From: Owenia fusiformis
Taxonomy: Eukaryota
Direction of reading: 5' to 3'
NCBI GenBank assembly: GCA_903813345.2
Contig: CAIIXF020000001.1
Coordinates: forward strand, 13,826,001-13,890,000
Length of the DNA: 64,000 bases
Numbering within the stretch: position 1 is the stretch's first letter; each line of letters opens with the position of its first letter. Below are positions 14,501-59,951 of the stretch, in pieces. The translations under genes and the position numbers were made by a program. Under the pieces are notes generated by a model, which did no database searches, was not told the origin of the DNA, and worked only from the letters and a program-made list of their open reading frames with translations.

Positions 14501-17500
14501 TTAAGACTAGCCCTTCATAAAAAGTACAAGATTACAACAGCTTTACAAGCAAAATTCTTCAAGTGTATTTTCTGAATTCAAATGAGTCAAAATAATTTTG
14601 AGTTGCACTTTCATGCTTTTCCAAAGTAGCTGACTTTAGTTCATACCTGTTTTAGCTGTTCATCTGAATCAAAGTAGATCTCTTTTGGTAGATTTCTTAA
14701 TATGCCTGTGTTTATGGCACCCTTCTGTGTGAGATATCTAATGATGCGATCTATCTCATAGTGACATCTTATCCTCACAAGACCTCGACAGATTAAGTAT
14801 GGCACACAACGATCCACTGTTAAATACTCCTAAATGATAAAATATGATGTTTTAACACTGGAACTCTGGGCTATATATTAGTGCATATTTACAGGTCAAT
14901 GATACTTTACCAATTTTTATTAAATCTATGAAAATAATCTTTGATCATTAGCTCAAGAACTGCATTTAAAATTGTTACAAAAACTGTGGAGGTCTTAATA
15001 TTAAAACGTATCAGTGTAAGTTATTTTCCATGATGTGTTGTCCAACTGACCAACTGATTACAACTTCAGACGGTACGCTTTAGACTTAGGCTTCATGGTA
15101 TCAGAACTTTCAATGTAAAGACTTACCTTATAATTTAAGCACCAGAGTGACAGCACCAGATTTCTAAGTGAGAGGTACATGTGTTGTGCACTGAAACAAA
15201 CACAGTGTTATGCAATGCATTATTTATTAATTAGTAAACATTAATAAATATATTTAAAACAACTATATATGTCTCTGTTCATTTATTATCAGGAATGAGT
15301 TCTGGCACTAGATATAAAGTGCTTATAGTACAGGTCATATGAATGTTGCCAGATTCTTTAATTTATCAACTTTATAGAAAAACTTTATAGATATCCCCTA
15401 GATTATCATTCTATGGATACTGAATATAGCAATTAGCTCTTACTGGGCATATTCTGAGAATGTCTCCACTTCATCGCTGTCCATCACCTCTGGCTTGTAG
15501 CACATTGCCATGGCAACATCAGTGGGTTCAGCAAACATGTGCATAAATCGACTCGTCCCTGACACATGTGGAGGCCCAGCATCAAAATTATTTTCTTTAT
15601 CTGATAATAAGAGCAAATACATACAAATACATTGACATCAATACAATCAGCATGGGGAAGAGGCATGTGAAATGCCATTGCATACCAGTTGCTACATATC
15701 AGTGACAAGCACTGTAGCTACTTTTACTTTAAAGTTAGTGATCGAGTATCTGGATTAATACCATTTCGTAATTAATTTCAAGCTGCATTTTCATTTCAAG
15801 AAAAGAAAAAAAGAGTATATGGTCCATACAACAATCTGAAATCTCCATAATGCAAGAACAATCCAGCTAAATCCAAGAAATAGTAACTGAAAGGTTTAGA
15901 AAACACTTCCTCTCCAACTAGAATTAACCAAGCAGAATTTTAATTTAATGTACATGTACCTGCTTTAAGGTGTGCCATGTTTGTAGGTAGTTCATTATCA
16001 ACAGCACTGAGGCCCACACAGTCAGGATAATAGGAGGCAAGGAAGGGGGTGGAGGGGGAGAACTTGAGGTATGGAGGCAGGATCAAACTAGTAATCCAGT
16101 TCTCATCTAACACTTCCTCAGCTCTCTAAAACAATCAATGCTTTATTCATTTACTAATATGACTTGACCTCTAACTGATAAAAACATTTTGATCCTATTG
16201 ATTTTTTAAACGAACCTTATTTATTTCTTGAAGTAAAATGGTTCTACTAACAAACATTTAAAGTTATATTCATGGATTCAACTTTATTGTCAAACTAAAG
16301 AGAGGCGGTCCTCATAAACACAACAATGATAATGCCGACTATAATGATTGTACATTATAATGAAAAAATATATAATGTTAAACATTGATTGTATAATTAA
16401 TGGAAATAAATATTTTACCTTGTCCATGGGTTTGGCACATTCTGTCTCTGAAGGGGATCCAGTTTCTTCTTCATCCTCTGACATCCCACACACAAACTTG
16501 CGTATAAATTCAGGTGTCAGCTGGAAATTAGCTGACATCTCTCGCCATTTCCTACACTCATTGCATTGAACCCAGTAAAATAGCACCTGGAATTACACAT
16601 TTTAATTTAACTTTGAAGAGATCTCAAAATTGATGCAAATTAACTTTTTGGCTCCTGGGGTTGGGCTGGGAAAATTAGAACATGGTATATGCTACCAAAA
16701 TTGCATACAGTAATATTTATTTCTAAAATAATCTGATGGTTGAACTAAGTCAAAAAAAGCATTCTAAAAATACAGGCAAATGATGGAAACAGCATCTTTT
16801 ACATGGCATGTCAACTGCAGGTAGGTAAAGAAAGCAACCACATAGCTTGGTCCACTGACAAATTGGCAAAATTCAAGAAATAATTTCTCAAAGGGGATTC
16901 CCCATACTTTGTAAAGAATTCTACTATGTTCACCGACACAAAAGCAAAATAAAACAATTATAGAAACACAATATACTTTTTACCTTTAAATCAATGATAT
17001 ATCAGGGATCATGGCAAACAATATAACAAAAAATATATTCAAATGTACTATAAACACAACTAACTAATCAAAACCAAGCCACAATTTCTTCACCTCATGT
17101 GTGTGTACATAGTATAAATGCCACTTCTCAGAACTGAAACTCAAGCTGAAAGTGAAACTCAAGTAAATTCCATTAACAAAGAAAAGCTGACGTAAATATT
17201 TACATGATTCATAAACATACTTTGATCGTTAGAATCAGGGATGTAATTTTGATTTGACAACAGAAAATTCAGAATAAAGAACTTCAGATCTACACAACAA
17301 GCATTATACTTTACAGATTAAAAGTCAGCCTGAATTTATACCGCTGTGTGGATAACGGTGGTTTATAAAAATCAAGTTTATGATGGACAAGCATTGAAGC
17401 AAGTAGCTCCTTAACTAGGATTATTCATTAAACATCAAAATGGGACAAAAACCTAGTAAAGCATCAGCACAACTTGCTTCAAGTTCACAAAGCAGAGGAC

Positions 17501-20500
17501 GTAGGAGTTGCATGCAGTTTACAGACTGTGAGAACAAGACACTGAAACATAGAAGTCAGTACATCCACAGTACAGATATACCTCCCTACATAGACTGCAG
17601 GTAGGAGTTACGTAATACGTACAGTGGGGTTGTCTAATTGGGAAATACCCTTTTCTTTCTTTTCATACCCCACCCTACTTAGTTTCAGAGGCACAACATC
17701 TTTAGTAGCTTTGCTTTTCATACTAAAAAGAGGTGTTCCTAGGGTTATTAAATTGGGTTACCCTTTCCTGTCTTTTCATACCACACCCTGCTTAGATATT
17801 TTAATTTCTGAGGTACAACAGTCATGTCCTTATTATCTGATGGTTGAACTAAGTCAAAAGGGTTCTTACATGTCTTTAATTTTGCCTTAATTTTCATAAT
17901 GTCATCTAAATACCTGACTAGCCAGCACAGCCAAGTTGAGTATTACTTAGTTTACACAAAGCTATCTCCTGAGAGATAGCTTGCAAAATTCTATATTCCC
18001 AGCCCATGTTAAAGGTCTTTTACAGAAATGTTAGAAATTGTGGGAACACTTACACTTCTTAAATCGATGTATAACATCATAAAGTATCGTTGTAATAATC
18101 GTAGAACGCTAACTGGAGTCGGGAGACAGTGTAATTGACGAAAATGAATTTGGAACTTGTTATTTTCCGTGGCGTCTGAACAGGAAGTCTTGCCAATGCG
18201 CATGCGTGTAATCGGAAGCGGAAATCTCATGACATGGAAGCGCAATGCACATTACTCAACTTCCTGAGAAGCCATCTTGAAAATTATCATCTCTTCAACA
18301 TTTTTTCCACATTTTTCGTCAATTACACTGTTTCCCAAGTGAGCACAGTGACTTATGCTTTTCATACTAAAAAGATGTGTTTCTAAAAAGCTTGAGTTCA
18401 CTAAGGCAGTAGATAACTGCACGTCAGAACAATGAATCAGCAATAAAAATAGACAGTAGGCTATTATTCACAAAAACAAAACATTAGCATCTTGAAAGCC
18501 CATGCTTCTAGGCATTAGTGTCAAGTCCTTTTGTTTGGTTGTTTGGTTAAAAGCAGCTCAATCAATATAAACCACATTGTTTAAAAAAGTACCCTTTCTT
18601 TTTTCACAACGATATTCAGAATACAAAAACTATCCAACTTGTAATTTTTGTCCGATTTCTTCTGAAAGATTTAGGTTGCCAACAAAAAATAGTATGCCTT
18701 CATCGGCCTTCCAATTTTAACATGTACCAGGTACACTTAGTACTGGAAGTTATTATATTCAACCATTCAGAGACAGCAATTAATGCCTTTATACATTTGT
18801 ATTTTAGTGATCGTCCCCCATGCTGGTACTGGGAGACTTGTAAGAGACAGGATGGCTATGAACATATGGCCAAGTACCTCCATCCATGGGAACTAGCCGG
18901 TGAGTTGAAACGTTACAATAATAGGCCTGATAGTACAACCCCCCTTATCATACCCATAATAGATTCTTATCTCATTATGTACAGGGGTCAATCACACAGT
19001 AATTGGTTCATGGGGGACACTGTTCAAGGATCCCCCTGAATTTTTTTTTTCTTTCCTGATAAAGCCAAAAATATATTTCTCAAGATTCTACCTTAAAACC
19101 AAAACATTTTTCTAACAGTGTTCAGGTACAGAATATTTTACAGCTGATGAAGGTCATCTTGACTTCAGTTTGTACTAAATGATAAATTACCAACAACACA
19201 CAAGAGTTATTTTAAGGTGAACATATGTTAGCGCACTGACTCTAACAGTCATATTACTTCACTGTTTTTGTCTGTCATGTAAATAAAATAAAACACTCCA
19301 CCCTTTAAATAATAAATAGCACTTGTGATAATGGATTAATGGGTTTGATAATTATTAACTTTGAATTAAAATCACCCTATCATAACTTTCATTCAACTGT
19401 CTGATGTCAAATTCAAGAGCTTACACATGAGTATTTGGCAGCAATGCATTTTTAAAATTTTTATTCCTCTTCCAAACTATATGCTTTAAATAGTAATTTT
19501 CCTTATGTTCTACATGAAGAATTTCTGTTCAGTTAATACACATTTTTACATAATAAGGGTCATTAAAACTTGTTTCTTTGTTAGATGTTAGACTGGGATA
19601 TTGTAGTTTTTTTGACCATTTAAACTTCAAGCATCAAATTAACACATTTTCCTCTTTAAGACACATTTTGATGGTCTGAAATAGCAAACGTGCTTAAACA
19701 CCATTTCACATATTATGACAATATGAAAGTTAGACTGTATATAGCATTTGGTATGTTAAATTGCTACATAAAATTTAGGTAAAATTGCAATTTGACTTGA
19801 TTTGGTTTGACAAAAGATGGTGTATTTAATCAGACAGGGTGATATGGTTTCATCATGATTTATTTATGTTCACCTTCAATCTCATTTTTGATTCAGATGA
19901 AGTGCGGACAGTCCTGATTGGTAAAACAGGGGCGGGCAAAAGTCTCTCATGCAATACCCTACTGGGCAAAGAGAAGTTTCAGAGTGTCCTTGGTTTCCAG
20001 TCAGACACAAGTTCTTGTCAGTATGACTATGTCAACTATCAAGGGACGAAATATATGATCGTCGACACTCCAGGAATATTTGACACGAGAGTCAAAAAGG
20101 ATCAGAATGCTATCGAACTGTTGAAGTGTCTGAGTATATGTGCCCCAGGGCCTCATGTTTTCCTCATCACTATAGCGATAGGACATGGACGGTATACAGT
20201 TGAAGATGAGACAACGGTTGAGCTATGCCGTAAAGTATTAGGAGATGGTATGTTAAATCATGCAGTTGTGTTGTTCACTTGTGGTGATAAACTGATTGAA
20301 GAGAATATGACTGAGGAAGAGCTGATGAACAATTCCCCAGAAACACTGAAGAAACTGATCAAAGATTGTGGTGGACGTACATTTATTATAAACAATAAAA
20401 CCAGCCGTGAACACAGAACCAACCAAGCGAAAGACTTGATGATGAAAATCAGTACATGGGGCCTTGATAAAACTGCATATGAAGACAAACATGGACTTTT

Positions 20501-23500
20501 CAAGAAAATAGAAGGAATATTTATGAAAGAACAACTGGAAAATAACACTTCACGAGACGAAATTAAGCAATCTATAATAAGAAACCTGCGTAAGGCAAAG
20601 CCTATCATGAAAACAATTATAACAGCTATTGGCCCAATGATGGGCGAGATACCACACCAATATGCACAAGGAATTTCCAAAGTAATGACAGTAGTTACAC
20701 CAATGCTGATTATTCCATTGCTAGATCACTGGGTAGATGATGACATAAAAGAAACTCCTGATGGTTAGTGGAATAGCAAGAGTATACATGCCCTGAACTA
20801 TTATGCAAGTATGGACATAAAGGATGAATCAGGAAATATGCACATAATTGGCCCTTGCTTAAATGTATTCGAAATATTGATTATTTTATTGTGAAATAAA
20901 ATACACCTTTTATGAATACTGATGCATAATTGACCTTCTGCTGTAAATCAAATAAAGATAAATTGTTTTCATAGTTCAATGTATTTTTTAATGTTTTAAA
21001 TCATGATGTACAACAATATATTAGTACAACATCAAAGTACTAGCATTTCAATGTTAAAAAAATGTTACAGCACTTGTGAAAGACTTAGATGACTTTTTGT
21101 TGTTGTTGGGCATTGAAATGGAGGGAATTGGTTTATGAAATGCTTCAACTGAAACAGAACTTTTTTTACTCCACTTTGATCAGCCACATTTAATTTAGCA
21201 AACAGATTCTATATTTTTTTAACTTCAGTTAAATACCAAACACTTAGATTCTTTTGGTGTTGGTAAATCATACTTACAGCATGGAACATTTTTTTTGTCC
21301 AAATTAGTCAATATAACAATAGTTATACTAATGGTGCACAGCATATTTGTATACAGGGTGTCCCGAAAAGTATGGGGCCACCCCTAGGTAGACATGTACC
21401 TGAGATGGCACGAGAGGACACATTGACTAGTGATTTGGTGTAAAATTAAACTTAATTTTGACCAAACACTAAATTTTTAAATGCCTGTAACTTTTTCCCA
21501 TTTGAGAGTTGAACCATGATACTTGGCAAATCAATGTAAGTTTGGATAAACTTTAAAATGATATATGACACATACTATTACAACACTGGTATATGTCTGC
21601 CTAGGGGGGGGGGGGCATACTTTCGGGACACCCTGTACATGAAAAGAAAACTTCGAAGACTGACAAAAGCTTAAGTAATGACCAATAATGAAGTTCTAAG
21701 TCAAAGAATGAAACACCACTGGCCAACAGCTATTACCCATCAATATACAATAATACACCTCTTTGAAATATTTTACATACCTGATCGATCATGAATGTTT
21801 TAATTGTAGGTTCTGTTTTTCCATTCTCTGACCACTCTTTCTTCCACTGTTCCAGCATGGGAAATCCTGCCTTCTGACTGAAACAAACAATTGAGAACTT
21901 TCACTTGATCTCTTGTGGTTTACTCTATTTCTTAAAATATTAATGAAAAGCTTTCCACATGAATCCATGAAATGGTTTGGCTGGAAACCTGTTGACATTC
22001 CTTGACAGACAAGATTTTAGGAAAAAAATCCAAAATAGACGGTAAAGATTAAAAGGTGGATTGGATCGAGTGGATTGGGTTCATGTAAAAGGTGGATTGG
22101 ATTGGCTATCTTCAAAATATGGATTTTCCTTTAAAAAATTCTATTGATCTCCCTTTAGGAAGATTGGTGCTCTCTTCACTTGCACAGTGTCAAATAATAG
22201 ATGTAATATTATTTTGCTTGGGTGGGCTAGAAGGTTGACCTGGTACCTGCTTTCTGATACACGATCTTATTCATTCCAAGTGTAATTTGAGACATTTCAT
22301 AAATCATAAGGCAGACTGGTTTGAAGATCCATATCTGTTTTCAATCCAAACTGAACATACCAAAAATGTTTTGTGAACATTCACACATTAATTTGAATGA
22401 CAGGTTTTCTTTTTCTAAAGATCTATGTCTTACAAAAGTTGATTTACAAGGGAAAGCAAGAGTGTCCCTGAACTAATTGGAGTATGTATTTGTCATTGCT
22501 TTGTTCTGATTTCTCAAAAGGGACCTGTAAAACTGTAGAGGGAAATCAACAGAATTTTTTTTATAAGAAATTCCACATTTTGAAGATTCCCGATCCAATC
22601 CACCTTTTACATGAATCCAATCCACTCGATCCAATCCACCTTTTAATCTCTACCAAATAGACACCCTAACATTTATCCAGACTGCCTAAAAACTAATCAG
22701 CTTTAAACTTTCGTATGTAATAATATCCATAAAAATTTCAATACAACATTTACCTAGCATTTACCTTACATTTAACATTTACCTAACATTTACCCAGACT
22801 GCCCAAAAACTAATCAGTTTTAAACTTTCTTACGTAATAACATCCCTAAAGATTTCAGATGAATCCATGAAACGGTTTGACTGGAAACCTGTAGGCAAGC
22901 CTCGACACACAAGATTTCCTTAATATTTAACCAGAATGCCTCAAATATAATCAGTTCTAAACTTTCGTAGGTAGTAACATCTTCAGGAGACAAGGGGATA
23001 TGAGGGTTAGACACACCCCTAGGGGTTGCCTTTTTATGTACAGTGTTTGTAATCATGAATGAGAAATGAGAAATAAACTGAACAGAATTGAATTGAAATG
23101 TGAATTTACTTATATCTATAGTAGGCTAGGCAAATGGAAGTTTAACATCCCAAAAATTGCAACAGTTTTTAAATTAGGCTTATATTGTATATTGATACCA
23201 GTTGAAAAACATATCAAAAATATAGAAAAATATATGCAGTGGACAAATATGAAATGTCACATTCCAGGTACCCCCCTCCAAATTTGAGTATGGGATTGTA
23301 AATATTTTTTTATTTCAAAATGGAATACTCTTGTCAACTAAACGAGTAATATTATGATAGTTTACTGACATAAGAGCAACTAAAAATTGTTAACCAACTA
23401 TTTGAGTGCAATAATTGGCATTTCTAGCGCCAAATATCTGAAAATAGGCCATCAAATAGCCCGAATTTAATATAACAATGTATTTATTTCTGTATCAATT

Positions 23501-26500
23501 CATCAGAATTGCATGAAAAATATCTAGGAGGGTATTGTACACCTGAACATTGTCTTTGATAAGTATCAGGGTCATTAAATGAATATTGAGCGTGAAAATA
23601 ATATTTGAAATTTCAATATTTTACCACACCCACTTTTGGGGTGACCTTACTTTTGTTTAATTACTTCCAAGATATGTCATATTTGAACTCAATAGCACAA
23701 CTAAATTATTTGTAAAGGCTTATTTTGTCCCGAAAACAGTTTTTTGAGGTTTTCAGAAAAGGATTATGCAAAAAAAGTAGAAAAACAGCAAATGCCAGGT
23801 GAAATATAGGGGAAGCCCTACTTTTAGTTGATAACTGTTAAATTATCAAATGTTTTCTCCTTTTAAATTCAATTTGATATATAATATACCTTTTCTGATA
23901 AAACAGAGAACGATTTGTTACAATCAGTGGTCAAAAAATGTCCTTGAAAAGGCAACAAAATGTTAAATATCCCTGTCACTGACATCAGTTTATTAATATG
24001 AGCCAAAAAAGGTAACCCAACCAAATGTTTGTTAATAACCCAGTCATTCAGCATGGGTTTGACATCATATTTAGCACAATTACCTTGTTCAATGTTCTTT
24101 CATTCTACTAAGTGTCATTGATCTATCCTTAATAGTCACGATTTTATGGCCATTTACAAAATGTGCTCAAAATATCGAAATGTGCCTAACTGACTGGACA
24201 TCAATACCACCAGTTTTTTTTTTTATCTGTGGACCTTTTTTCGATACTAACAACACTTGAAACATTAAAACAAGAGATAAGAATGAAGATGAGAGTCATA
24301 ACACATGATTTTTATGCTCCTGATTTGAACAACACGATACGTACAAGTTGGCCTCCAGGAATGACACCCATATTTCATGGCATGGTATAAAATGGCCATA
24401 AAATCTTGACCACTAGAGACCACTGAGACTGGGTAGATTGATAATACATTGACCAAGACTCAATTCTGCCAAATATGACACTAAATCCATGCAGGATGAT
24501 TGGACTGGATTATTAAGATTTGTTTGGGTTACCTTTTTGGCTCGCCCTGTATTAAGGAAAAATTGTTACTTTTGAATAAGGTGTTCTTAACCACACAGTG
24601 ATATTGAGAAATGAAATGAAGAAGTTCAACTGAAGAATGTTCGATTTCAAGATGAACTTAAATAAAAAATGAGCCAAAGGTTTTTACATTAATAAATCCT
24701 CTTGAGTTAACTAGTGTAACGCAAAGTAAATCCCTGGTCTTTATACAGGGCCTGGTTCGATTATGTTATGTTCATTATCGAAAATGCTGCCTTAATTTTG
24801 TAATCTTAACCTTCATATATGTGTCTTACTTATAGAGAGCAAAAAAGAATGCTGATTAAATAAGCTTAATACTATTATGTTTTAACAACAATCAGTTACA
24901 ACCTTGTCTATCACCAGCCTTCATCAGGGGCGGATATGGGAACCAACAAGGGGGGGGGGGCAAATGTCAGGTCTGAGAAAAAACTTCCGCGGAAAAAATT
25001 TTGGGCCCCTAAAACCCTGAAGTGGGCCCAAATTTTGAAATATTGAGACCCATTTTCTTCAATTAAAAAATAAGGCTTTAAATGGCCCATTTATGACCAA
25101 AAAGGCCTACTTTTCGGGGCCTTAAGGCCTTTTTTGGGCCCAATTTTTTTTTAGTCATCATTATTCTCATGATCAGTAATGGAGGTATTTGCACAAATGC
25201 CTTTGCATACCTTTTTCATTTTTCTACAAGAACATCTCATAGAAATACAATCTGCCTTACACACACAATGGATGATCTCTGAGAAAGGGGAGCTGCATTT
25301 AGGCAATTGGTTAGGTACATAGTTTCGTTGCCTATTTCCCAGCCCAATTATAATGGAGGCAGTTTATTTCCCTCCCACTCCTGGATCTGATGGTACACTC
25401 TGTAACTGTGGTATTCCGCAGCATCAGAAAATGGAGGAAGAGCTGCAATAATTCAGATCCTGCTGCTCTCTTTTAATAGAATTTTAGAAGCCTAAGATAA
25501 TTTAGGGTTTCACCATTTTTCCACCATAAATTGACAAAAGAGCATGTTCCTCTGCAATGACAGAGTTGCTTGCATTTCACTGGTTTTCTACTTGTTTACG
25601 TTGTAACAAAATGTCGGAACATCGAAGGTTTGATTTTTCTTTTTTCTTTATTTCACACATTGTAGGCAGAATTCCCACAACATTGTTATCACAAACATGT
25701 ATCAGTATTATATGTTTAAAAATGTACATATTTGCGAACAAATAGTTCAGAAGACAACAGAATCTTCGATTTAATTCCTCACTTAAGTTACATAAACGGT
25801 ATTTCGATAAACAATTAAGATCTGCACTTTTAACCCAAACTGTTTATTTAACTTAAATAAGGAATAAAATCAACAATTCTGTGAGAAAAAAACATCGTGG
25901 GGATTCTGCCTACAACGCGTGAAAAAAAAGGAAAAAAGAAATATCGTACTTTCGACGTTTAGACATTTTGTTACCGAAACGACAAGCGTAATCGAGCGGA
26001 TCACCAGTGCTTTTGGTAATTTAAAAACAACCGCTTGTTTTCTCAAGAACTCACTCTTTTTTATCTGCCTCAATGATAGACTCTTGTCTATGCCATATAT
26101 AACCTGAATGCGATGTCACACCCCAGAAAAGAAACAAAATATCGTCACAGACCACTTTTCCCAAAGACAATCTTATTTCATTTATATTCCAACATTTTGT
26201 TTCTTGGGTTGCTGCTTTTGGTTCAGGTTTGAAGAAAATGTTGAAGTTTGTGTTTTGTGCATGATAAATGAGAAGCACAAGGAGATCTGTATGAGTACTG
26301 TATTTGAGGTTTGGACACTTTGGATTGCAGTTTTCACAATCACAATATCTGCATCCGATTCTGAATGCAGCGCATGTACACTCAATGTTTTCCAACCTGA
26401 CAGACAGAATTACCATCATTCCTATGCACTGAAATTATATTAATGAAAGACTCCCCAGATATCTGAGATTTTAATGTTCTCTGTCGGTTTAAATTCCGTT

Positions 26501-29500
26501 TAATAACCATAAATTCGTTTCTACAGCATTATACATCCAATTGATAGTTCCATAGTAATGTACTCTTATGTAATGATTTATTTATCTGATGAATTTAAAT
26601 ATATGCAAATTTAGTAATTGCGGATTGTAATTAATAATTTAAACAATATTAAATTCCACAAAAACTACAACTTACATTATTTAGATAAGCCTAGTATAGA
26701 GCAGTTATCAAATACCCTAATATCAGAGTGGTGATATGTAATTATTCATCAAATAAAAGTGAGGTCACCTTAACATTTCACCTGGTGCAACTAATAATTC
26801 CTATTTTTCATACTAATAAGGTATAAACCTTCACAAAACTTGTATTTTAGATGATGACAAGCCTATATAAATGATTTAGATGTCAACTCTAATACAAATG
26901 TGATGCATTGTGGGAGTTAATCATCAAAACTATAGTCTCCCTTATAGTGGGCGGGGCAAAACTATGAAAATGAAATAATTTTTTTCTTCCTAAGTATACA
27001 CCTTAGAATTCTGACACTCACCAAATATGAAGTTCATATGAATATGTAACACCATAATTTTTTTCATGCTTTTCTGACTAACTGATCCTAAAATATCTAA
27101 ATAGATATGTGATAACATGCCTGTTTTGTGGCCTATTTTGTTATACTTTGGAGTCAAATGACCAATTACTGGTCTCAAAATTGATTAAAATGATATTTTA
27201 ATTATTTGTGAATGTGTGATCTATCATAATAAAGCTTGAATACTTGACTAAAGTATTCCATTTGGGAAGAAAAAATTGTTTCCTACCAATACTCAATTTT
27301 GGGGTAGGGTTGTAGGGGGTAACTAGGAAGTGAAATTTCATATTTGTCCACTGCATACATTTTTCTATATTTTTGATATGTTTTTCAACTGATATTAATA
27401 CATAATATAAGACTAATTTAAAAACTGTTGCAATTTTTGGGATGTTTGGGCCTTTTATGAGCCCATTTGCTTGGCCTATAGCATCACATAACTTTATCAG
27501 GCTTCAAATACACTATAAAACTATTAACAGTCAATACTTGACCTTGTTAAAGCCAAACATAATTTTATCAGGTGTCAGATACATAAGTACACAGTGATAT
27601 TGCAGAAATACATGTAAAAACACATGGTCTAGACATTTTATAATGGCTCCTTTTAAACTATATGGGGACTATAAGTCCCAGCCAGTTAGGGCAGTAGCAT
27701 TAATGCTGAGGACAAACAACATTGACTTTGACTTTGTATCCTGCCCTTTGGAACCAAAGGCTGGCCGTAAGTATACATATATTATTACCTGTACATATAT
27801 TAATTTGTACATTAATTTTGTATTGTAATAGTTGAATCACTGACTGAACTTAATTTCATCCATATCTTTATTTTTCATATACAATATACATTTTCTTAAA
27901 TAAATGACCCCTCCTTTTAACTATAAACCATCACCACTTTTTAACCTATGTGCAAGTATACAGGTAAAATAAGGGGGGGGGGGGGGGGGTTGGTGACTTA
28001 CCCCTGCAACTGAAAACTGCTAATATAAATTCAAAGTTTCAAGATGGCTACCTCAACTCTAGGTCATAACAAGAATTTAAGGAATATATAGAGAATGCCA
28101 AGTTCATTATGACCAACTGATGAATCATATAATTTCAATTTCTAAATCACATTTCAACTTAATTAAACTAATTGACTCTTCAAAACGAGTAGCTATTTAA
28201 AATAAGAGATCAAGACAATGCTTCCAGGTCAAGTCGACCCAAAGTCATCTCAAACCATGTCAACATAATTGTTTTGTCACTATTTTTTTGTTTTCATTAC
28301 ACAATATAATAAGGTCTAATAAGGTATAAGGACCCTTAAACCAAAAAGTGGAAGATATGAGACATAAAAAAGTTTACATTTACAGATATCTTTGATACTT
28401 CACTAGTTATTAAATTCATCCATCATGTAGTTTCATTTCATTAATTTTATCATTGTTTTACAGGTAGAATTGGGACAGAAGAATATGCGACAAATGTTAA
28501 CCCATTTAAAAGAGTCCCGACACTTGTTGTAGAAGGAGTAGCACATATCTGTGAGAGGTACACATTTTCCATATTTTCTCTGTCAGTATGTAATCAAATT
28601 AATTTATTATGTTCAAAAAGCCTATCTTGTCACTGTCCACATATTTGCCTTTTCTTTGGATGATGTACATTATAAATGTATAACTTCACATCTTCTTTAT
28701 ATCAAGCTCTGCAGCCCTGCAGTACCTAGCTGAGCTGGAAGGGGTATCTCCTCACTGGTACCCAAGGAGTGGGAAGGAGAGGATCCTTGTGAACACATAC
28801 CTGGCCTGGCATGGTCCTGATGTGAGAAAATATGCATCAGGATACTTTGTCTCCACAGTAAGTCTCACATTTCTACAAGTATTTCACTGAGAACACTAAG
28901 ACAAAACCTTGCATTAATCTCTATATAATAATAACAATTCCCCTATATGTGATTGCAATGAAAAAATTTGTGTTAACCACAAGTCACAATGTGTCAGATC
29001 AGATCAATTGGGAATTAAATTAACAAAAATAACTATATCTAGTAGATCAAATAAACTGAGATTAACTTCACCGTTAAATAAAATAAAACACAGATCTAAA
29101 TCAATAGTGATAACATTACAAACAAGCATATCATGTAAATTTAATAACTTGTCATTTGTTCTACAGTTCTATGGGCCTTTGTTCCTTGACAGACATTTCA
29201 CAGATACACAGGTGAAAGAATTTAGAGATGGATTTGAGGCTCTCCTGGACAAACTTGAAAAAATCTGGCTGAAGGAAACCCCATATCTTGCTGGGAATGA
29301 CATCACAATAGCTGACTTACAACTAATCACAGAACTCACACAGGTTGAGTCAACTGGCTATGATATGGTGAAAGGTAGGCCCAAGTTGGAGGCTTGGATG
29401 CAGCTAGTTAAGGACATACTACAGCCACATTATGATGCAATCAGTGAGGAGCCTTTGACTGGATTTGCAGACCAATATAAGGAATACAAAGCATCAAAAT

Positions 29501-32500
29501 AACATTTATGTGACTTATGTATTCCAAAGACAGTTTTAAATACTACCATTTCATTATGCCAGGCTTAATTTCCATTAAAAGCCAAACATTGCAAAATATG
29601 CTGCCTGATCCTATAATACCCAAATTGGTGACTGACAACCTCTTTTGTATATAGGAAATTGTAATTGAAAAATAAATATTGATTATTAATAAAAATAGTT
29701 TGATTTTGCTCCTCTAAAAGAGAACTTCATGTACACTCTGACTGAGCGGTGATGCTTTGATCTAACCTTAACTGATTAGAATACTTGGAAGATCAAATCC
29801 AGAGCCCGATCAGAATAGAATTCATTTAATCTTATGTTTTTGTAAGTACATGGCAATCATTTCACAACAGAACACTCATTTAAGGCCATAACAGCTATTT
29901 TTGAGGCGATTTAAAATCAAACGGTTATATTCACTAGTACTCCACACAAGTAAAAGGTTTACCTTCTATAATAGTACTCGAAGCAGTCATTGCAGTAGTG
30001 CTCTCCAGCTGATAGATGGTACCATCGTGATGTCATGCCATCTCCACAGCAACTAAATATTAATATACAAAATATTTAGTCTATCAATTCAATTTGTATT
30101 TACGCTGTTCAAAATGTATCTTTATGCCAACTATAATCTCAATGTATCAAACCAATATGAGACAAGGCATTAACATGCAAAATGTCACCACCTGCCATTT
30201 GTTACAGATGCCAACCACCAAACACCAACTGCAAAACACCATCCACAAAAAAGTTGGAGACTTTAACAATATGTCACTACTTGTCACTATGCGTATATGT
30301 GCAAATATTCAATGGGGAAGGTGTTCAGTTTGTAAAAAGACAAAGTTATTTCATTATGGTTTAACCCTCCCTTTCCCTCATAAAACAAAATTAGAAAATG
30401 TTGATTTGCCTTTCAGTTGTTTTTTCAAAAGATCATTTTTACACTCTCATTTGCTTAACCCCCATCCAGTTATATGGACTTTGTTAAAATCATAATAAGA
30501 GAACGTAAAATATTTATGTATTGATCAGTATATATTTGTGATGGGTAGAGAGTAAATCTTGTTTAAGAACATCGCAAATCAGCCCCCACCCTCTTAGCTA
30601 CTTTCAATTACAAACAGATACAGGTAAATAGAGAGGATGTAATGCTAGTAGCCTAGTAGTTAAAGAAATCTGCTAATGCAAACTCACCGTGCAGCACAAC
30701 GTATGGCACAGATAGGAATATCAGAAGTACAGCGAGACATCCCACACTTTCTATACATAGATCCATCTGGTCTCTCCAAAATCACATCTCTCTTCTTCAC
30801 CTTCTTATCTTCAGATTGGCCTGGGCCTCTATTATATGCAACAAAATATATGATCACAAACTCACAAATTCACGAAATGTTTAACGTTTTAAATACTGTA
30901 CATGAAGTAATAGTGTTTTCAACCAAATATGTAATCTAAATCATATCAAAGATTTTTCTAGTTTATACCTATGACCATGTGCAATGTTCTTTTTCATCAA
31001 TTTCTTATAATGGGTTAAAAATTCTCATTTAGATACAAATGGATTCACCTTGGTGAAATTTTATTTCCAAATTCTAAACTAAGTGTTGCACACACATGAA
31101 TGCCTTTCATTAACTTATATTGATTTAACATACTTTGGAGACTGAACTGCAGCAGCAGACTTTGGTGTACTTGGTGCTGACTTGATGACTTTAACTTTCT
31201 TTGGTCGAATCTTATCTTGTATGTTCTTAAAATTTATTGTCCCCTCTGCCGGTGCAGGCTTGGATTTCTTCTTTGGTGATTCAACAATTGGCTTTGATTT
31301 CTTCTTTGGTGACTCTACAATGGGTGTATTTTCTGCAGCGGCCCTCGCTTTATCTTCAGCTGATTTTTTCTGACTCCTTGGACTCTTAGCGTCTTCTTTT
31401 ACTGCCTTATCCTCGACTCTAGGGCTTTTTGATGAAGAGTTGGGCGATGAGATTTCTTTTGGTGATATGTATTCTTCTTCATCGTAACGTTTTTTAGGTT
31501 TACGGGCACGCTTGCCTTCAACAATTATCGGTTGATGGAATAAGGGGAGATATTCAGCATCAACTCCCATGTTCTCTTGTGGAATAGGGACAGCAAGTTC
31601 TTTCGGAACATTTTGGCTGATAGGTTTTTGACTCCTAGAGGTTTTCTCAACCTTCAATGTATCCTCACTTGGTACTTGAGATCCATTTTCTGGTTCTAGA
31701 GTTTGTGCTATTTGACTACCAGTGTTATCATTTTTATTATCTGGTGTAGTTTCTTTAGGGCTTGTTTTTAAGGAGGTATTGGTATCATCTTCAGCATTAG
31801 GTTTTTCATCAGTTACATTTTCATTACTTGTATTACTGGACACAGAAAATCTCTTCTTTGAAGGGCGACCACGGCCTCGTTTAGGCGATACTAGTGTCTC
31901 AGTCTCTTTTTCCAGTACACTTTTCTCATCTTCTTTGACATCTCCCGCATCATTTAATTTTTGTTCAGTAAGAGCATCTCCTTTTACTCTAATAGTTTCA
32001 GGTTCATCTTCTGGTTTAGCAGGTGTTTCATCATTTATGTTTTCATTACTTCCATTACTTGACACAGATAACCTCTTCTTTGAAGGGCGACCACGTCCTC
32101 TTTTAGGCGATACTAATGTCTCAGTCTCCTTTTCCAGTTTAACTTTCTCATTATTGGGTACAATTTTTTCATCTCCTTTAACATCCCCTTCATCATTTTG
32201 TTGTATTACAGCATCTCCTTTCGCTTCAACAGTTTCAACAATAGCGTCATCTTCAGTGTTAGGTTTTTCATCAGTAATGTTTTCATTACTTACATTACTT
32301 GATACAGATAACCTCTTCTTTGAAGGCCGACCACGTCCTCTTTTAGGCGATACTAATGTCTCAGCCCCCTTTTCCAGTATAGTATTCTCATTTTCAGGTA
32401 CAATTTCCTCATCTTCTTTATCATTTCCTGCATCATTTGACTTTTGTTCTGTTAGAGTACCTTCCTTTTCTCCAATAGTTTCCTGTTCATCTTCCAGTTT

Positions 32501-32608
32501 AGCACGTTTACTCGTTGGTGTACTAGTGATGCTATCATTGTTGTCATCTCCTATAGATTGTAAACTTTTCCTTGGACGTCCTCGTTTTCTCGTGCTTGCT
32601 TCTTCCAT
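8591..32608 (-). CDS. KDM1B: Lysine-specific histone demethylase 1B (LSD2/AOF1), 18 coding exons, ~1681 aa, with long N- and C-terminal extensions
   Basis: Phase-consistent GT-AG exons (minus): 32608-31134, 30828-30688, 30052-29963, 21877-21781, 16586-16419, 16125-15960, 15600-15444, 15190-15127, 14829-14647, 14229-14020, 13769-13598, 13116-12857, 12524-12450, 12052-11936, 11608-11483, 11094-10963, 10458-10306, 9850-8591 (sum 5046 nt). Domains: LSD2 C4H2C2 finger ([12 protein letters not shown]...[31 protein letters not shown]), CW finger ([12 protein letters not shown]), SWIRM ([12 protein letters not shown]...LICRGLVRI...[12 protein letters not shown]), and amine oxidase ([53 protein letters not shown]). 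Confidence 0.93.
10055..10147. mobile_element. 93-bp hairpin MITE with 9-bp TSD
   Basis: TAGCCAAACTCGTCTGGCCCAGTTATCTACTC ... GAGTAGATAACTGTGCCAGACGGTTTTGGTTA flanked by GTGTCCAGG at 10046-10054 and 10148-10156. Confidence 0.8.
16893..17159 (+). promoter_or_regulatory. Putative immune-inducible promoter of the PBZ-GIMAP gene
   Basis: GGGGATTCCCC (kB palindrome) 16893-16903, TATAAAT 17113-17119, TTCTCAGAA (GAS/STAT) 17125-17133, GAACTGAAACT 17131-17141 and GAAAGTGAAACT (ISRE/IRF-E) 17148-17159, lying 280-550 bp upstream of ATG 17440. Confidence 0.5.
17440..20768 (+). CDS. AIG1/GIMAP-family GTPase with N-terminal myristoylation motif and two PBZ-like CCHH zinc fingers (3 coding exons, ~374 aa), nested antisense in a KDM1B intron
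   Basis: Exons 17440-17600 (ends phase 2, ag|GTAGG), 18808-18899 (TTTTAG| ... g|GTGAGT) and 19897-20768 (TTCAG|) join in frame. GTPase motifs: G1 GKTGAGKS, G3 DTPG, GIMAP conserved box [14 protein letters not shown]4 FTCGD, G5 INNK. AATAAA at ~20896 and ~20951. The GTPase exon is very secure; the two upstream exons are my inference from splice phase and motifs. Confidence 0.85.
21354..21635. mobile_element. Tc1/mariner MITE
   Basis: TA-CAGGGTGTCCCGAAA(A)GTATG ... CATACTTTCGGGACACCCTG-TA. Confidence 0.85.
22041..22654. mobile_element. MITE with ~60-bp TIRs and 8-bp TSD (hAT/MULE-like)
   Basis: GGTAAAGATTAAAAGGTGGATTGGATCGAGTGGATTGG ... CCAATCCACTCGATCCAATCCACCTTTTAATCTCTACC; AAATAGAC at 22033-22040 and 22655-22662. 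Confidence 0.85.
23122..27478 (-). mobile_element. Academ-like (AcademX) DNA transposon relic
   Basis: ~200-bp imperfect TIRs (TAGGCTAGGCAAATGG...CCATTTGCTTGGCCTA) and a 3-bp TSD TAG (23119-23121 / 27479-27481). Degenerate minus-strand fragments: [14 protein letters not shown] / [11 protein letters not shown] (XPG/PIN-like, ~26190-26390), [20 protein letters not shown] (~25380-25445), and Cys-rich [25 protein letters not shown] (~25190-25275). Confidence 0.8.
24000..24551. mobile_element. Tc1/mariner-like MITE nested in the Academ relic (left end eroded)
   Basis: GAGCCAAAAAAGGTAACCCAA ... TTGGGTTACCTTTTTGGCTCGCCCTG-TA. Confidence 0.6.
27643..29502 (+). CDS. Glutathione S-transferase, theta class (4 exons), nested antisense in a KDM1B intron
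   Basis: Exons 27643-27766, 28464-28557, 28707-28857, 29167-29502 join in frame: [18 protein letters not shown] (theta SQP motif), [63 protein letters not shown]. Confidence 0.92.
30162..30290 (-). repeat. Short dispersed HINE-like repeat family (ACAAGGCATTAACATGCAAAATGTCACCACCTGCCATTTGTTACAGA)
   Basis: Copies at ~49-100, 4555-4650, 12088-12232, 12600-12755, 14272-14430 and 30162-30290, and inverted at ~48900-49037 and 52027-52132. ATGTCACC/GGTGACAT subterminal IR and terminal GCAT..ATGC hairpin. Confidence 0.75.
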
Positions 32609-33851
32609 TCCTGAAAATAAAACTTCTGGTCTTAAGTACAAATGATGATATTATAGCAGTACTTTGAACTTGATTATTTTAAACTTGCTATATATTAGCA
32701 GCAACCCTGTAATATTCGCAAAAATTGTGCAGCATTTAACAAGTAGCTAAATACATACATGATCAAGGTTGAAGCCAGGGACTGGTGAAGGCATTTTCTT
32801 AAAATAGGTGATGCAAATTTAAACAGAAGAAGCAAAACTTAAGCAAAAAAGGATTTTATACTCCTATGTGACATAATTTTCACAAGTATTGTGTAGAACT
32901 GTCTACAATTTGAAACTACTTCTGAAATTACAAGTACCTCGTAGTTGAGTCGAAATACTGTACCCTCTATTTTTACATGCACCTTACTATTTAATGGATC
33001 GGATGGTCTGCCTTTATTATCTTTTCACTTATTGAAACATATAGAGTACATGTACATTTGAATGCTTTTTAGCTTGTTTTTAGTCAAACAAGTTCATAGT
33101 ACCACCAGAGCTTATATAGGGAGACTCATGGCTCAATAAAATTCTAGTACCTCTGATACATGACATACATATCGGTTAAAGTGCCAGCTGTAAAATTATC
33201 AGTGTATGGAGTTAAGAATAGCTAGAAAGTAGAGGCTTGGTTCATTTTGGGTGTATTTTGAGGTATATAATACATTTTCAGTGAAGATTTCCAAAGGTGT
33301 ATTGAAAATCTTTGGGTAATAACTGTAACAATTTGATAATTAACCTTCACAGTTTAGGTGAGTACATTCATTTGGTATCATTAAGAAATCAATTAATTTC
33401 ACTGCCAAAAAAACATTTAGCCTGCAAAAACATAAGCAGAAAGTCATACTGATTGCTTCATATCGACAAGCGAAAACACTTTTACAGGGAAAACATATCC
33501 AAAAACACCATTTCAAATGAAACTGAAAATTAATTGTGTCAGAAATATTTTACTTATTTTAAAATTGGACTAATCTTGACTTGCCTATCTTACAAGATCT
33601 ATTATTTTTCATTTATCAATTTATTCATATTCATTTCTCAACTACAATTAATTGCAGGTTAATCTGTGCCTACAAGCTTGTTTCGGTTTGTTCTTAATAC
33701 AATTATACTACCATGTATTGTACCAAAAAGCATTAAATACAAACCTACAATATACAGAAAAGTAATATCGGCCTAAACAATTTTTCTGAACTCATATTTT
33801 TGAAATTGTAATGGTAGGTCGTAGATTATAGTAAACAAATATGTCAAGACT

Positions 33852-34107
33852 CACTGGCGGATTAGGGGGGGGGGCCTGGGGGCCCGGGCCCCCCCCCCTT
33901 GGGTGGGCCCAGAAAAAAAAATTGGGCCCAAAAAAGCCTTAAGGCCCCAAAAAGTCGGCCTTTTTGGTCATAACTGGGCCTTTTAAGGCCTTATTTTTTT
34001 AATTCAGGCCAAATTTTGAAGAAAATGGGCCTCAAAATTTCAAAACGTTTTTTCACTGACCTAAAATTTGGGCCCCCCCCCCTTGTTGGTTGCCAGATCC
34101 GCCCCTG
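33852..34107. mobile_element. GC-rich MITE with 5-bp TSD; partial copies at ~3180-3390, 24925-25150 and 39147-39210
   Basis: CACTGGCGGAT ... ATCCGCCCCTG termini; AGACT at 33847-33851 and 34108-34112; poly-G/GGGCCC interior shared with the other copies. Confidence 0.8.
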
Positions 34108-39413: not shown

Positions 39414-42400
39414 ATGTTTAAGATAGAGTCATACATTACTCCCCTGTTGATGGGCTATGTGGATAGGTAAGGACATTTGGATTTAGAGCATGCATGTTCC
39501 TGGTCACACCCTTGCAAACTTGAAACCTGTAAAAGTGGAACACTGAAATTTTCAGAGTCCCGAGATCAAATGTTAAATGAACCTCTATAACTGGAACTCC
39601 TCCCAAGTGGAACACTTTTCAGAGTCCCGAGACCAAATGTTTAAAATGAACCTCTATAAGTGGAACTCCTCCCAAGTGGAACATTTTTAGAGGTACCAGA
39701 GGTGTTCCACTTACTAGACAGATTTTACTGTATGTGAGCTGAAATTGTTCCACCCTCATTCCAATAATTGAAGTCTTTACATTGATCACAGTTTTTATGT
39801 GGTACAAGGTACATAGACATACTGTACTGTGTTTATAAATGTCAGAGATGTGGATGTTTTCTGTGTATCATTCAGTTTAAACCTCCTGGACAAGAGTTTT
39901 TAGATGAACATAGTGAAGTTATTTTATTTGTCAGGTTTATAAAAATATGTATGCTCTATTGCAAAAATTAGATAAAATTTTGAATAATTTTGTAACTCCT
40001 TTTTAGGTATGTCAAACTGCGACATGAAGACTTCCAGTTATCTCTGTGGGGAGGAGATGCAGTGCTTAACCAATTAGATCTCCGTCTAGACGCCATTGAG
40101 CATGCCATCAATCTACCAATAACCATCAAGAGTGGTCATATCCATGAGCTAAGAATCCATGTGCCATGGACAAAGCTTGGTTCAGAGCCAGTTGTGATAA
40201 CAATCAATACCATTGAGTGTATATTGAAGCTGCGAGACTCAGCTTACAATGATAGGGACAGTTCCAGTAGCAAATCATCAAAGACTATACCGAAAAGTTC
40301 TTCTACGCAATCTTTGAAGAAATCACGCAGTAGATCAGATGAGAATCTCCCTCCTGGGTACATTCAGAGTATTACAAATCGTATCGTCAACAATGTCAAT
40401 ATTGTCATCAACAATCTTATTCTGAAGTTTGTAGAGGATGATATCGTGTTATCTCTGAATGTGAAATCTGCGGAATGTTATGCAGTGAACTCTGATTGGG
40501 CCAGATCATTTATAGACCTAACCCCTGAAGATCTTGTTTTACGCAGAATGTTCAACTTCCATGATCTCACGGTTTGTTTAGATAAACGAAATGCTAGTGG
40601 GAAAATTGAGACGTATCAGGATCCCTTATTATATAGGTGCTCTTTGTCGTGTAGAATTCATATGATGTTCGACTCTCTCAATGCAAAGATTCCAAGTGCA
40701 ATTAAATTCAATGTACTTTGTGAAAAACTAGACCTTTCCATGACTGATACTCAACTACCAATGTTCTGCCGTCTGCTGGAACTTGTTATTGCATTGTATT
40801 ATGGGACATTAGAACTTCCTGGATTGGATTCTCAAACTGAGGCTGATACAACCATGACAACAGAAACTGATGTAGATACTGGACAACCTGTAGGTATGTA
40901 CGTGTAAATAAGGAATGGTTAAAGAATTAGAAAAAAATCCGTCTTTCTAAATAAGACCTTCAATTTGTTATTTTGTCTTTCAGAAGCTGACACTCCCGAA
41001 GGTGAAGAGGGTGAGGGATGGGGATCTTGGGCATGGTCTTATGTGCCTGCTATCCTACCCCCGGGAGAGGAAGAACAAGATGACCAATCTGTGAGAAAGA
41101 AACCTCAACCTTTGATTCTGGAAATAGGTGGCTATATCACCAAAGCTGAAGTGGTTTTCAAGGTGAGCAGGTGTTCAATAATGTCATTTGTGTATAGAAA
41201 TTACTTCAAATAATGTCATGCATTTTCTAATAATAAATTGTTATATTTTTCAGCTATCTGAGATAGTCCAAGAGACAACATACTTTGGTCCACAAAAGAC
41301 AATATTTCGTCCATTTGCTTGTATGGAGGGGGAAGCCATAACAGTAGAGATACTGCTAAAGGGGCTAGAGTTCTTCAATGCACATTTTGGCATCACTGGT
41401 TTGAGGATTTTCAGTCAAGGAGAATGTGTTTGTGGCGTGCAGGATGGAGAAAATGTCCCTGTAAGTATGCAATAGGGAAGCCATCCGTCTGTCCATTCGT
41501 CCATCCATATGTCTGTCCTGATGTTTAACTAAATATCGGTTGATGGATTTAGTTCCAGTTTGCTATTTTTGCTTGAAAAAGAATTAACAATTATGGGTGT
41601 TCATTTCAAAATGGCTGCCATTGTTTTGTAAAAACATCATCTGATGACTCAAATACCAGCTGTCGGATTTGGTTCCGAAGGCTGATACCTTAGGACATAG
41701 AAGATTTGACAAAGAAAGATGGTTGCACACATTTTATTATGTTATTGTTTTGCACATGAACTTTACTAGATTAGTATTATTTAAAATGATTTTGTTTCTC
41801 TTTCAAGGATCCATACTTCTTCAATGGAGGAGTGAAGTTTGAAGAAACAAAACCAGTGAATTATCTTTCAAACTCACTCTTTGATCCAAATGGGGCAGAA
41901 AACCAGATGACAAAACATGACTATATCTTTGATACCGAGAAACATTTAGAGAAGTACACTGAACACTTTGCGCTACAAAGATTTGGTGCCTTTTGGTTAG
42001 ATTACCTGTATACCATGGAACAAGTGGAAGACAGATCAAGTAAGAATTCATTTTGCATTTTCTAGTTTGTTAATTGAAAAAGATGGCGTTCTTGTACGAG
42101 AAATGACACTATATTCATCATTATTATATAGACAGCAGAATGCTCAAAGTAACGATGAGTTAAAATATACATACAGTATAACAGTCTAATATTGTGGTCT
42201 AATACTTCTTTCTCCATTCACATTTGTACTTTTCAGTGAGTAGCAGATCATCGACTACTAGCGTGGATGACCCAAATGTCAAAGAGGCATCACAGAACAA
42301 GTTCTTAATAGGCCCCGCCCACTTGAAAGTTACAAGCAGCATGATGCATCGCTTGAAAACTTTCCTTTATTTCGCCAACAATCATGAGTATGAACCATAC

Positions 42401-58596: not shown

Positions 58597-59754
58597 TTAA
58601 TCAAGTTTAAACCATTTTTCAAATCCAAACATTTCATAGTCTGTGGCATATCTTGCATATATTCCATTAATTGTTTGAGAGGTAAGGTTGCTATAGTAAC
58701 TTTGAAGTCTTGCTGTTGTTTTAGGCTGACTGAAAGGGAAAATGTATTTATCAAGATTTGCATGTGCTAAGGTAAAGTTGGCATCTGTGTTAAGAGTCCT
58801 AAAATCTCCAATGGCATCATAGTGGATGGTACATGGGGTGCATAATTCATTAAAAGATAGCCAATGTGGATCTTGTGGACGATTTCTTCGGTCAGTTACA
58901 TATTTTACAAACTCTTCAAAAGTAGGTATTCCTTGTACAATCTCAGCATATGTAGGGTTATGACGATATCTTTTAACCATATTTGATCCAAAGTGTTTTC
59001 TGTAATAACCTCCCTTGACATCTATGAACTTTGATTTCCAGGCAGATGGAAGTCTTTCTATTGGATCGCGCACAAACATGAATTTGAAAAATTCCCCTTG
59101 AATTTTTTTCTGCCTCTTGCTATCGAGAAAATTCAGATGTGTAAGGATCCTCCCTTCGTACCATTTGCTCCAATTTGGTCCTCTTTGACTCAACTGTATA
59201 TTAGTCTCATTTAAATCATATTTGCTAGCAGTTAGAATCTCTCTCCATGTGGTGCTGGCGACTTTAGGTGTATAGCAATATAGAATCTTTTTCTTCAAAT
59301 CAACATAAATGTTACCATTTGATATTTCCTTTCTAATCTGGGCTTTCTTTTTTCTCAGTTTCTCCAGTCTTTGACAAGTATTTTCAATCCTTTTTTGTCT
59401 CATTTTCATGTATGTTTCAACATCATTCTCAATTATCGCAGCTTGGGTTTGAAGAATATCACCATCCCCGACCTTGACTTTCTCATCCCTGACCTTTGCT
59501 TGATTGTTAAGATCACCATTTTCATGATATCTATATGCCTCTTGTGTCAACTTTCCCATTGACAGTTTTACATCCCCATCAATAACAGATTCCAGTTCAT
59601 CAATTTCTTTTGAACTTTCCTCCCAAAGGTGCAGTTCTTTGACACCATGGAAACAAAAGCACATAATTATAAAGGAAGTAATTACATGTAGTATAATCAG
59701 TATTGTGATTAACTCTGAAATGTATTTACGTTTGAGGTTTTTGAGGAGAAGCAT
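58597..59754 (-). CDS. Golgi carbohydrate sulfotransferase (Sulfotransfer_2; CHST8-14/HNK-1ST family), single coding exon, nested antisense in a VPS13B intron
   Basis: 385-aa ORF with a type II N-terminal TM helix (ISELITILIILHVITSFIIMCFCF), 5'-PSB CYTPKVASTTW, 3'-PB FMFVRDPIERLPSAW, DPHW...LCTPC..HYDAIG, and C-terminal YATDYEMFGF. Candidate acceptor for an upstream UTR intron near 59926. Confidence 0.92.
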   Translation of the reverse strand: MLLLKNLKRKYISELITILIILHVITSFIIMCFCFHGVKELHLWEESSKEIDELESVIDGDVKLSMGKLTQEAYRYHENGDLNNQAKVRDEKVKVGDGDILQTQAAIIENDVETYMKMRQKRIENTCQRLEKLRKKKAQIRKEISNGNIYVDLKKKILYCYTPKVASTTWREILTASKYDLNETNIQLSQRGPNWSKWYEGRILTHLNFLDSKRQKKIQGEFFKFMFVRDPIERLPSAWKSKFIDVKGGYYRKHFGSNMVKRYRHNPTYAEIVQGIPTFEEFVKYVTDRRNRPQDPHWLSFNELCTPCTIHYDAIGDFRTLNTDANFTLAHANLDKYIFPFSQPKTTARLQSYYSNLTSQTINGIYARYATDYEMFGFEKWFKLD

Positions 59755-59951
59755 ATTGTTGTTGTTTTCTGTGTAACAATGTCTTTCTTTGTGATATTAA
59801 GGTGGGCCAAATTATCACACTCTGCCTTTCTAAATGTTAAATCTCAGTTAGTATGTGAGCAGCATTATGAAGACAAATCAATGTAGACAAATTCTCCTCT
59901 TTGCAAAGTCTTTTTTCGGTGACAATCTGAAACATATGTGAAAGTTTGTCA

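Follow-up and report, generated by a model that had tools for sequence, protein, structure and literature searches.

The stretch analysed here, referred to as the window, comprises 64,000 nucleotides (nt) of the annelid Owenia fusiformis (GenBank assembly GCA_903813345.2, contig CAIIXF020000001.1, positions 13,826,001 to 13,890,000 of the forward strand). It is AT-rich and intron-rich, with a G+C content of 0.31–0.42, and its minus-strand open reading frames (ORFs) below position 30828 read as exons of the histone demethylase KDM1B, also called LSD2. Upstream of these lies a long exon, 31134–32610, with which the coding sequence of the single kdm1b gene of O. fusiformis almost certainly begins, although it is not the first exon of the transcript. 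It encodes an N-terminal extension with four AT-hook cores. By its term counts and passages, a paper on the annelid chromatin toolkit records a single kdm1b in this species and never mentions AT-hooks (PMC12153100). The gene is laid out as follows, P0001 being the public protein model described below.

31134..32610, minus strand: first coding exon of KDM1B, a K/E/S/P-rich and probably disordered N-terminal extension (ORF, RNA depth, boundary sequence)
32606..32608, minus strand: likely start codon (first ATG of the exon)
30829..31133, minus strand: GT..AG intron of 305 nt between the extension exon and the zinc-finger exon (RNA-seq junction reads, contigs)
30688..30828, minus strand: zinc-finger exon of KDM1B, GPGQSEDKK...YRKCGMSRC... 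(junctions; alignment to human LSD2 chains)
8594..30052, minus strand: other KDM1B exons, with zinc finger part 2, zf-CW, SWIRM and amine oxidase (tblastn of P0001, RNA joints, Pfam)
8594..9850, minus strand: last KDM1B exon (tblastn of P0001)

The first coding exon runs from 32610 to 31134 and is 1,477 nt long. The original prediction had described a 508-residue ORF at this place; the ORF stands but its length does not, as the ORF listing gives 511 codons between stops (32650..31118), and up to the donor one counts, starting with the ATG at 32608, 491 codons and 2 nt of a lysine codon. Directly before the exon there is a polypyrimidine-AG acceptor, ttttattttcag/GA ATG, which makes 32610 the first exon base. 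The ATG at 32608–32606, 2 nt past the acceptor, is the earliest in the exon and is likely to be the start codon; counted from it, the full-length protein would have about 1,681 amino acids (aa). At the other end the donor reads AA/GTATGT, with 31134 as the final exon base, and the acceptor of the next exon reads aatAG/A, with 30828 as its first base. The frame is kept across the joint and reads on into YRKCGMSRC.

Much of this structure is already present in a public, slightly truncated model. P0001, an O. fusiformis protein of 1,644 aa that is labelled ‘unnamed protein product’ at NCBI and lysine-specific histone demethylase 1B in UniRef, was found in the search among longer proteins with 100% identity across 92% of the 491-aa query. 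It covers 19 blocks of the window from 32497 down to 8594 (tblastn) and holds precisely the 31134/30828 junction. P0001 begins with MEDEQ, which corresponds to the CTG of codon 38 (window position 32497), and it is without 37 residues that include the first hook; from its sequence, the model looks 5′-truncated. RNA coverage of the exon, by contigs and by reads, extends to 32610 and includes the part between 32497 and 32608 that P0001 omits.

For the transcripts, two raw stranded RNA-seq runs (X17 and X19) and two contig sets (X1 and X13) were mapped to positions 16000–35999. The joint between 30828 and 31134, with 305 nt skipped and CT..AC on the plus strand (GT..AG on the minus strand), is carried by nine reads in X17, six in X19 and one contig in X13. 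Another row, 30824 to 31133 with ‘ACC’ between, is the same junction in an allele with two synonymous differences, and has ten reads in X17, eight in X19 and an X1 contig of 1,262 nt at a depth of 403.8. Both alleles together give 19 reads in X17 and 14 in X19. The corresponding counts for other joints of the gene are 27 and 29 (30052 to 30688), 14 and 25 (21877 to 29963), 32 and 25 (16584 to 21779) and 24 and 16 (16125 to 16419); the extension exon is joined about as often as these other KDM1B junctions (14–32 reads). Every junction read has its first mate on the plus strand, as expected of minus-strand RNA in the usual stranded libraries. The proposal that this exon splices in phase, from 31134 to 30828, onto the LSD2 zinc-finger exon is borne out by the junction reads and the public model alike. 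RNA depth is 14–26 over the exon and about 0 at 32675–33341. One X1 contig follows the exon as far as 32610, beyond which it has 40 letters that do not adjoin the match, which fits a spliced 5′ exon elsewhere.

The features of the 491-aa product, all on the minus strand, are the following; CDK stands for cyclin-dependent kinase.

32567..32590, minus strand: AT-hook 1, RKRGRPRK, aa 7–14 (motif; Pfam AT_hook 18.0 bits)
31785..32502, minus strand: triplicated unit of 74–80 aa, period about 240 nt (Tandem Repeats Finder; protein and codon alignment)
32312..32350, minus strand: AT-hook 2 and the adjacent CDK-consensus site, aa 87–99 (motif; Pfam AT_hook 14.5 bits)
32072..32110, minus strand: AT-hook 3, aa 167–179 (motif, unit alignment)
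31850..31888, minus strand: AT-hook 4, aa 241–253 (motif, unit alignment)
31487..31513, minus strand: basic patch KRARKPKKR, aa 366–374, which may be nuclear-localisation-like (sequence)
31256..31315, minus strand: two tandem copies of ESPKKKSKP, SPKK-type basic motifs (Tandem Repeats Finder, period 33)

The four RGRP cores start at aa 9, 92, 172 and 246 and have basic flanks on both sides. The array is therefore as had been foreseen, KRGRPRK followed by three hooks in a triplicated unit of about 75 aa, here measured at 74–80 aa. Tandem Repeats Finder reports a 240-nt period with 2.5–2.7 copies and 75–76% matches, the protein alignment gives three units, and we infer that part of the extension arose by triplication of this unit. 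SPKR stands directly before hooks 2–4, where the S/T-P-x-K/R consensus of CDK sites is present; in front of hook 1 the sequence is STRK, which without a proline is no CDK site, so that the earlier claim of SPKR before each hook holds for three of the four. A 30-aa fragment with hook 1 scores 18.0 bits against Pfam AT_hook (PF02178), above the gathering cut-off of 17.4.

Chance does not account for the hooks. Over 200,000 shuffles of the 491 residues, RGRP occurred on average 0.005 times per shuffle and never three times or more; when the triplication was reduced to one unit, which leaves two observed hooks, a single shuffle of the 200,000 reached two. The three units also differ in how their parts have diverged. 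The 38-column hook segment has 87% amino-acid identity, with 19 synonymous and 15 non-synonymous codon-pair differences, whereas the 5′ flank of the unit has 57% identity, with 12 synonymous and 43 non-synonymous differences (Fisher p = 0.0014, for codon pairs that are not independent). A 17-aa hook core is identical in all three copies even though five of its codon columns differ synonymously, which speaks for selection acting on the peptide and against recent copying, and the hook peptides thus appear to be under purifying selection. The 491 residues include no cysteine and six aromatic residues, and their mean normalised hydropathy is 0.356 against a charge–hydropathy boundary of 0.414; given the low hydropathy, the lack of cysteine and the few aromatics, the extension is probably disordered.

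Behind the extension the enzyme core is, by its sequence, complete, with a C4H2C2-type finger, zf-CW, SWIRM and an FAD amine oxidase, and belongs to the KDM1B/LSD2 subfamily. Residues 478–1249 of P0001 align in one ungapped-scale stretch to residues 22–793 of the human LSD2 chain (4fwe/4gu0) with 804 bits, compared with 239 bits to LSD1 chains; SWIRM and zf-CW are N-terminal to the oxidase and there is no Tower insertion. The Pfam matches of P0001 are Amino_oxidase (PF01593; 249.5 bits, residues 821–1250), NAD_binding_8 (41.3 bits), SWIRM (32.1 bits, cut-off 28.6) and zf-CW (33 bits, cut-off 27.5), and the FAD-binding Rossmann motif GAGASG is aligned with GAGPAG of human LSD2. The Cys and His residues of the N-terminal finger are kept at the aligned positions (YRKC..C..C..C..H..H.C..C), and we take these to be the zinc ligands of the C4H2C2 finger.

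Relatives were collected by a word-indexed search of proteins of 904–2,877 aa, which gave 57 hits, and by an exhaustive HMMER search of 1.84 billion representatives, from which the best 150 of 17,840 were considered. Proteins that align into the first 130 core residues were counted as KDM1B-like. This yielded 54 fetched proteins including that of Owenia itself, the named ones coming from a sponge, a cnidarian, echinoderms, vertebrates, hagfish, tunicates, chelicerates, a millipede, nematodes, molluscs, a nemertean, a flatworm and the annelid Ridgeia; several of the 53 others are fragments or possibly truncated models. More than one hook was found in none of the 53. Two have a single hook-like GRP near the N-terminus (P0082 of the mite Tropilaelaps mercedesae, MVKRGRPSSK, the one match to [RKPG]GRP, and the fragment P0112, KSGRPGKRK), and a third GRP sits within the core and is not hook-like. 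In P0082 and P0112 the motif is at the same place, where many other orthologues have SGRxxKRK, and directly before the finger, with neither the triplicated array nor the extension of about 465 aa that Owenia has. Invertebrate orthologues commonly have N-terminal extensions of 100–280 aa that are hook-free and non-homologous, with examples in tunicates, Limulus, Elysia and others. A description of multi-hook LSD2 tails was not found in the literature as far as titles and passages go; where full texts bring LSD2/KDM1B and AT-hooks together, the hooks belong to other proteins (titles; passages of PMC6004073 and PMC12582028). On the sequences compared, the AT-hook array makes this a lineage-specific variant of an enzyme that is well known.

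Vertebrate LSD2 has the same architecture as the Owenia protein (zinc finger, zf-CW, SWIRM, amine oxidase) but, as had been stated at the outset, only a short N-terminal tail, about 50 aa before the finger and without a hook, whereas Owenia carries hooks in cis on the enzyme. A partner of vertebrate LSD2 with a PWWP domain and a putative AT-hook aids its action on nucleosomes (passages of PMC5453194, PMC11118440 and PMC6004073). Residues 214–225 of this partner, NPAC, bind LSD2, and NPAC F217 together with LSD2 Y273, E277 and R285 forms a pocket for H3 L20 (PMC5453194); the LSD2–NPAC complex acts on nucleosomes (PMC11118440). Passages of Fei et al. give human GLYR1 a putative AT-hook and describe Drosophila NDF as having neither the hook nor the LSD2-binding region (PMC6004073). 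Human Y273, E277 and R285 correspond to A, D and K in Owenia (chain offset 26). The same three positions also vary in molluscs, Tubulanus and Ridgeia in a fast MAFFT alignment of what is a variable linker; as a sign of cofactor loss these residues are uninformative, since they vary in molluscs, a nemertean and another annelid.

A DNA-binding module on the enzyme itself is known from a different subfamily. Fission-yeast Lsd1 and Lsd2, and likewise the Pneumocystis proteins, resemble the Owenia protein in being FAD amine-oxidase histone demethylases with their own DNA-binding module; in fission yeast the HMG box is indispensable to Lsd2 and of importance to Lsd1 (passages of PMC7226997), and an HMG box (PF00505) is annotated on the Pneumocystis matches P0040 and P0041. 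P0048, an LSD1-like protein of Mortierella, has three PGRP hook-like motifs after the oxidase domain. These fungal proteins, unlike that of Owenia, belong to another subfamily without zf-CW or the N-terminal finger, and their modules, a folded HMG box in fission yeast and Pneumocystis and hooks in Mortierella, are all C-terminal and of independent origin from the N-terminal hooks of Owenia.

With HMGA1 and HMGA2 the Owenia tail shares several RGRP hooks, a disordered chain, acidic stretches and an S/T-P-K-R sequence abutting the hook. Phosphorylation of HMGA1 by Cdc2 lowers its affinity for DNA. HMGA proteins are stand-alone proteins of about 100 aa, whereas the Owenia hooks lie within an enzyme of about 1,681 aa, and as no similarity of the tail to any PDB chain or Atlas cluster was found, its likeness to the HMGA family is one of motif and logic only.

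The searches for a source of the tail were negative throughout. Against proteins of 861–2,455 aa the 491-aa tail matched the Owenia model alone, and against proteins of 270–860 aa it matched nothing; HMGA-size proteins below 270 aa fall outside this range, and a small donor gene is possible. A phmmer search of the PDB returned no hits, the ESM Atlas gave no usable match for the whole tail or for residues 76–272, and BLAST of the N- and C-terminal tails against all the other fetched proteins gave nothing under E = 0.5.

The orthologues do, however, share something with the very start of the Owenia protein. Across animal phyla a motif recurs at the extreme N-terminus, S-G-R-x-x-K-R-K followed by a hydrophobic residue and then acidic ones, as in Tubulanus (SSGRIKRKSLKLLEAE), Ciona (SGRKAKRKTFDD) and Clytia (SKRVPKRKVLYDDE). 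Of the 52 proteins that start with Met, counting Owenia, 15 match an ad hoc pattern for it, and there are several near-misses besides; carriers include P0002, P0058, P0060, P0062, P0063, P0012, P0016 and P0234. The motif falls outside the aligned human crystal chains, which begin at about residue 27. Titles on a described N-terminal nuclear-localisation signal of LSD2 yielded nothing relevant, and no stated function for SGRxxKRK was found among them. Owenia hook 1 (RKRGRPRK) occupies the place of this motif. Since the hook stands where the orthologues have their basic motif, the tail is better read as an expansion inside the gene than as a captured HMGA-like gene, and the extension probably grew within the gene, between the zinc finger and an ancestral motif at the N-terminus. 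The original prediction, which spoke of KDM1B fused to an HMGA-like N-terminus, was thus correct in joining the exon to the enzyme and probably wrong in implying the fusion of a separate gene. Hooks 2–4 possibly descended from hook 1.

The reading that we favour, by a little, is that the hooks tether LSD2 to DNA in cis. The hooks and the SPKK-type basic patches would bind the minor groove of AT-rich or linker DNA, and this binding would hold the H3K4me1/2 demethylase on chromatin in cis. By analogy with HMGA1, CDK phosphorylation of the SPKR sequences next to hooks 2–4 could lower the DNA affinity at mitosis. Control by CDK and substitution for a cofactor are attractive possibilities. In its fullest form the proposal would be that Owenia LSD2 took the DNA- and nucleosome-tethering role that NPAC/GLYR1 performs in trans into its own chain, with the hooks released at mitosis by CDK phosphorylation of SPKR, and that the SGRxxKRK peptide of most animal KDM1Bs is a DNA- or nucleosome-contacting element; this larger combination we hold to be speculative and on balance doubtful.

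Several observations weigh against tethering in cis. An hmmscan of the whole 491-aa product against Pfam found no families, and a fragment with a single repeat hook, at 14.5 bits, is under the AT_hook cut-off of 17.4. The tail is without a detectable homologue by which conservation between species could be shown. The absence of hooks in the orthologues could stem in part from truncated models, as Owenia's own is, and an upstream in-frame start in a 5′ exon is possible. Finally, as other invertebrates have long hook-free tails, the length of the extension alone needs no functional explanation.

The last point leads to the alternative that survives best, one that is tenable but less probable than tethering: the tail may be a generic disordered basic and acidic extension whose hooks and K-rich patches serve mainly nuclear import or unspecific chromatin affinity, with no AT-specific targeting, no cell-cycle switch and no relation to NPAC. 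The hook-free, non-homologous extensions of tunicates, Limulus, Elysia and others are in keeping with this, as is the composition of the tail, which is net neutral (91 K+R against 92 D+E). Many orthologues open with a KRK-type basic motif that is possibly a plain nuclear-localisation signal, and Owenia KDM1B has a C-terminal tail of 391 aa too, which is basic and then acidic. Set against these, the 17-aa hook core that is kept in three copies despite synonymous divergence exceeds what a nuclear-localisation signal needs, and the hooks have the canonical RGRP core, flanked on either side by basic residues.

The C-terminal tail is itself a distinct feature (8594–9766, minus strand), in which the last exon reads on past the conserved end of the oxidase domain. 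Basic residues prevail over its first 150 aa (39 K/R against 22 D/E); the remainder is strongly acidic (25 against 78). C-terminal extensions of more than 200 aa occur among the orthologues only in two neogastropods and one catfish model, and these are without sequence similarity to it.

An explanation that we consider improbable is that the extension is an effectively neutral, recent low-complexity expansion without function, produced by replication slippage or unequal crossing-over. It would accommodate the tandem triplication with its 75–76% nucleotide matches, the lack of homologues and the fast evolution of the unit flanks (the 12 synonymous against 43 non-synonymous differences), but it is hard to reconcile with a frame that stays open across 1,473 nt at 31–42% G+C, with the depletion of non-synonymous change in the hook segment and with an exon inclusion that equals that of the core exons. 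Very improbable is a stand-alone 497-aa HMGA-like AT-hook protein made mainly from this exon by intron retention, with the fused form as a minor isoform: the ORF does run 17 nt beyond the donor, with the retained 305-nt intron stopping the frame six codons on (...SPKYVKSI stop), and the X17 depth bin 30674–31340 (22.5), half of which is intron, is not obviously below the exon bins, so that some intron signal is possible, but the spliced reads (19 and 14) match those of the other junctions, the high-depth X1 contig (403.8) is the spliced form, and the rows listed contain no molecule end or poly(A)-type loose end near 31100.

Two other gene-like features lie antisense within introns of KDM1B. 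Glutathione S-transferase-like exons (28445–29502, plus strand; GST_C, 37.7 bits) are found in the 8.1-kb intron and have an RNA depth of about 0 in X17 and X19. An AIG1/GIMAP-type GTPase ORF of 312 codons (19830–20768, plus strand; 163 bits) is found in the 5.2-kb intron and has a low RNA signal in the opposite read orientation (depth 2.4–3.3). A further intron stretch of about 50 nt, 30162–30213, draws partly matching RNA reads by the thousand, which have loose ends at either side of it, at a bin depth of 227–289 against about 20 in exons; this stretch is probably part of a dispersed repeat that is transcribed. An Rfam scan of 8000–36000 gave no matches. Neighbouring features in the window are these.

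39996..40907, plus strand: VPS13-like N-terminal exon (184 bits)
46765..47877, minus strand: retroelement reverse-transcriptase ORF (RVT_1, 107 bits)
58597..59796, minus strand: Sulfotransfer_2 ORF (141 bits)

The significance of the array is limited: it is a single disordered, lineage-specific tail from one species, and chromatin proteins often gain AT-hooks. At the level of annotation, the public gene model should gain 37 residues, the first hook among them, and the recurrent N-terminal basic motif of animal KDM1Bs is now noteworthy. Of the two FAD histone demethylases, LSD2 has been understood less well, and on nucleosomes it depends on its partner NPAC/GLYR1 for chromatin contacts. An LSD2 with four hooks in its own chain would be a natural comparison for asking how much of the activity on nucleosomes is simple DNA tethering, and whether such tethering can move between cofactor and enzyme in evolution, as the HMG boxes of fission-yeast Lsd1 and Lsd2 suggest.

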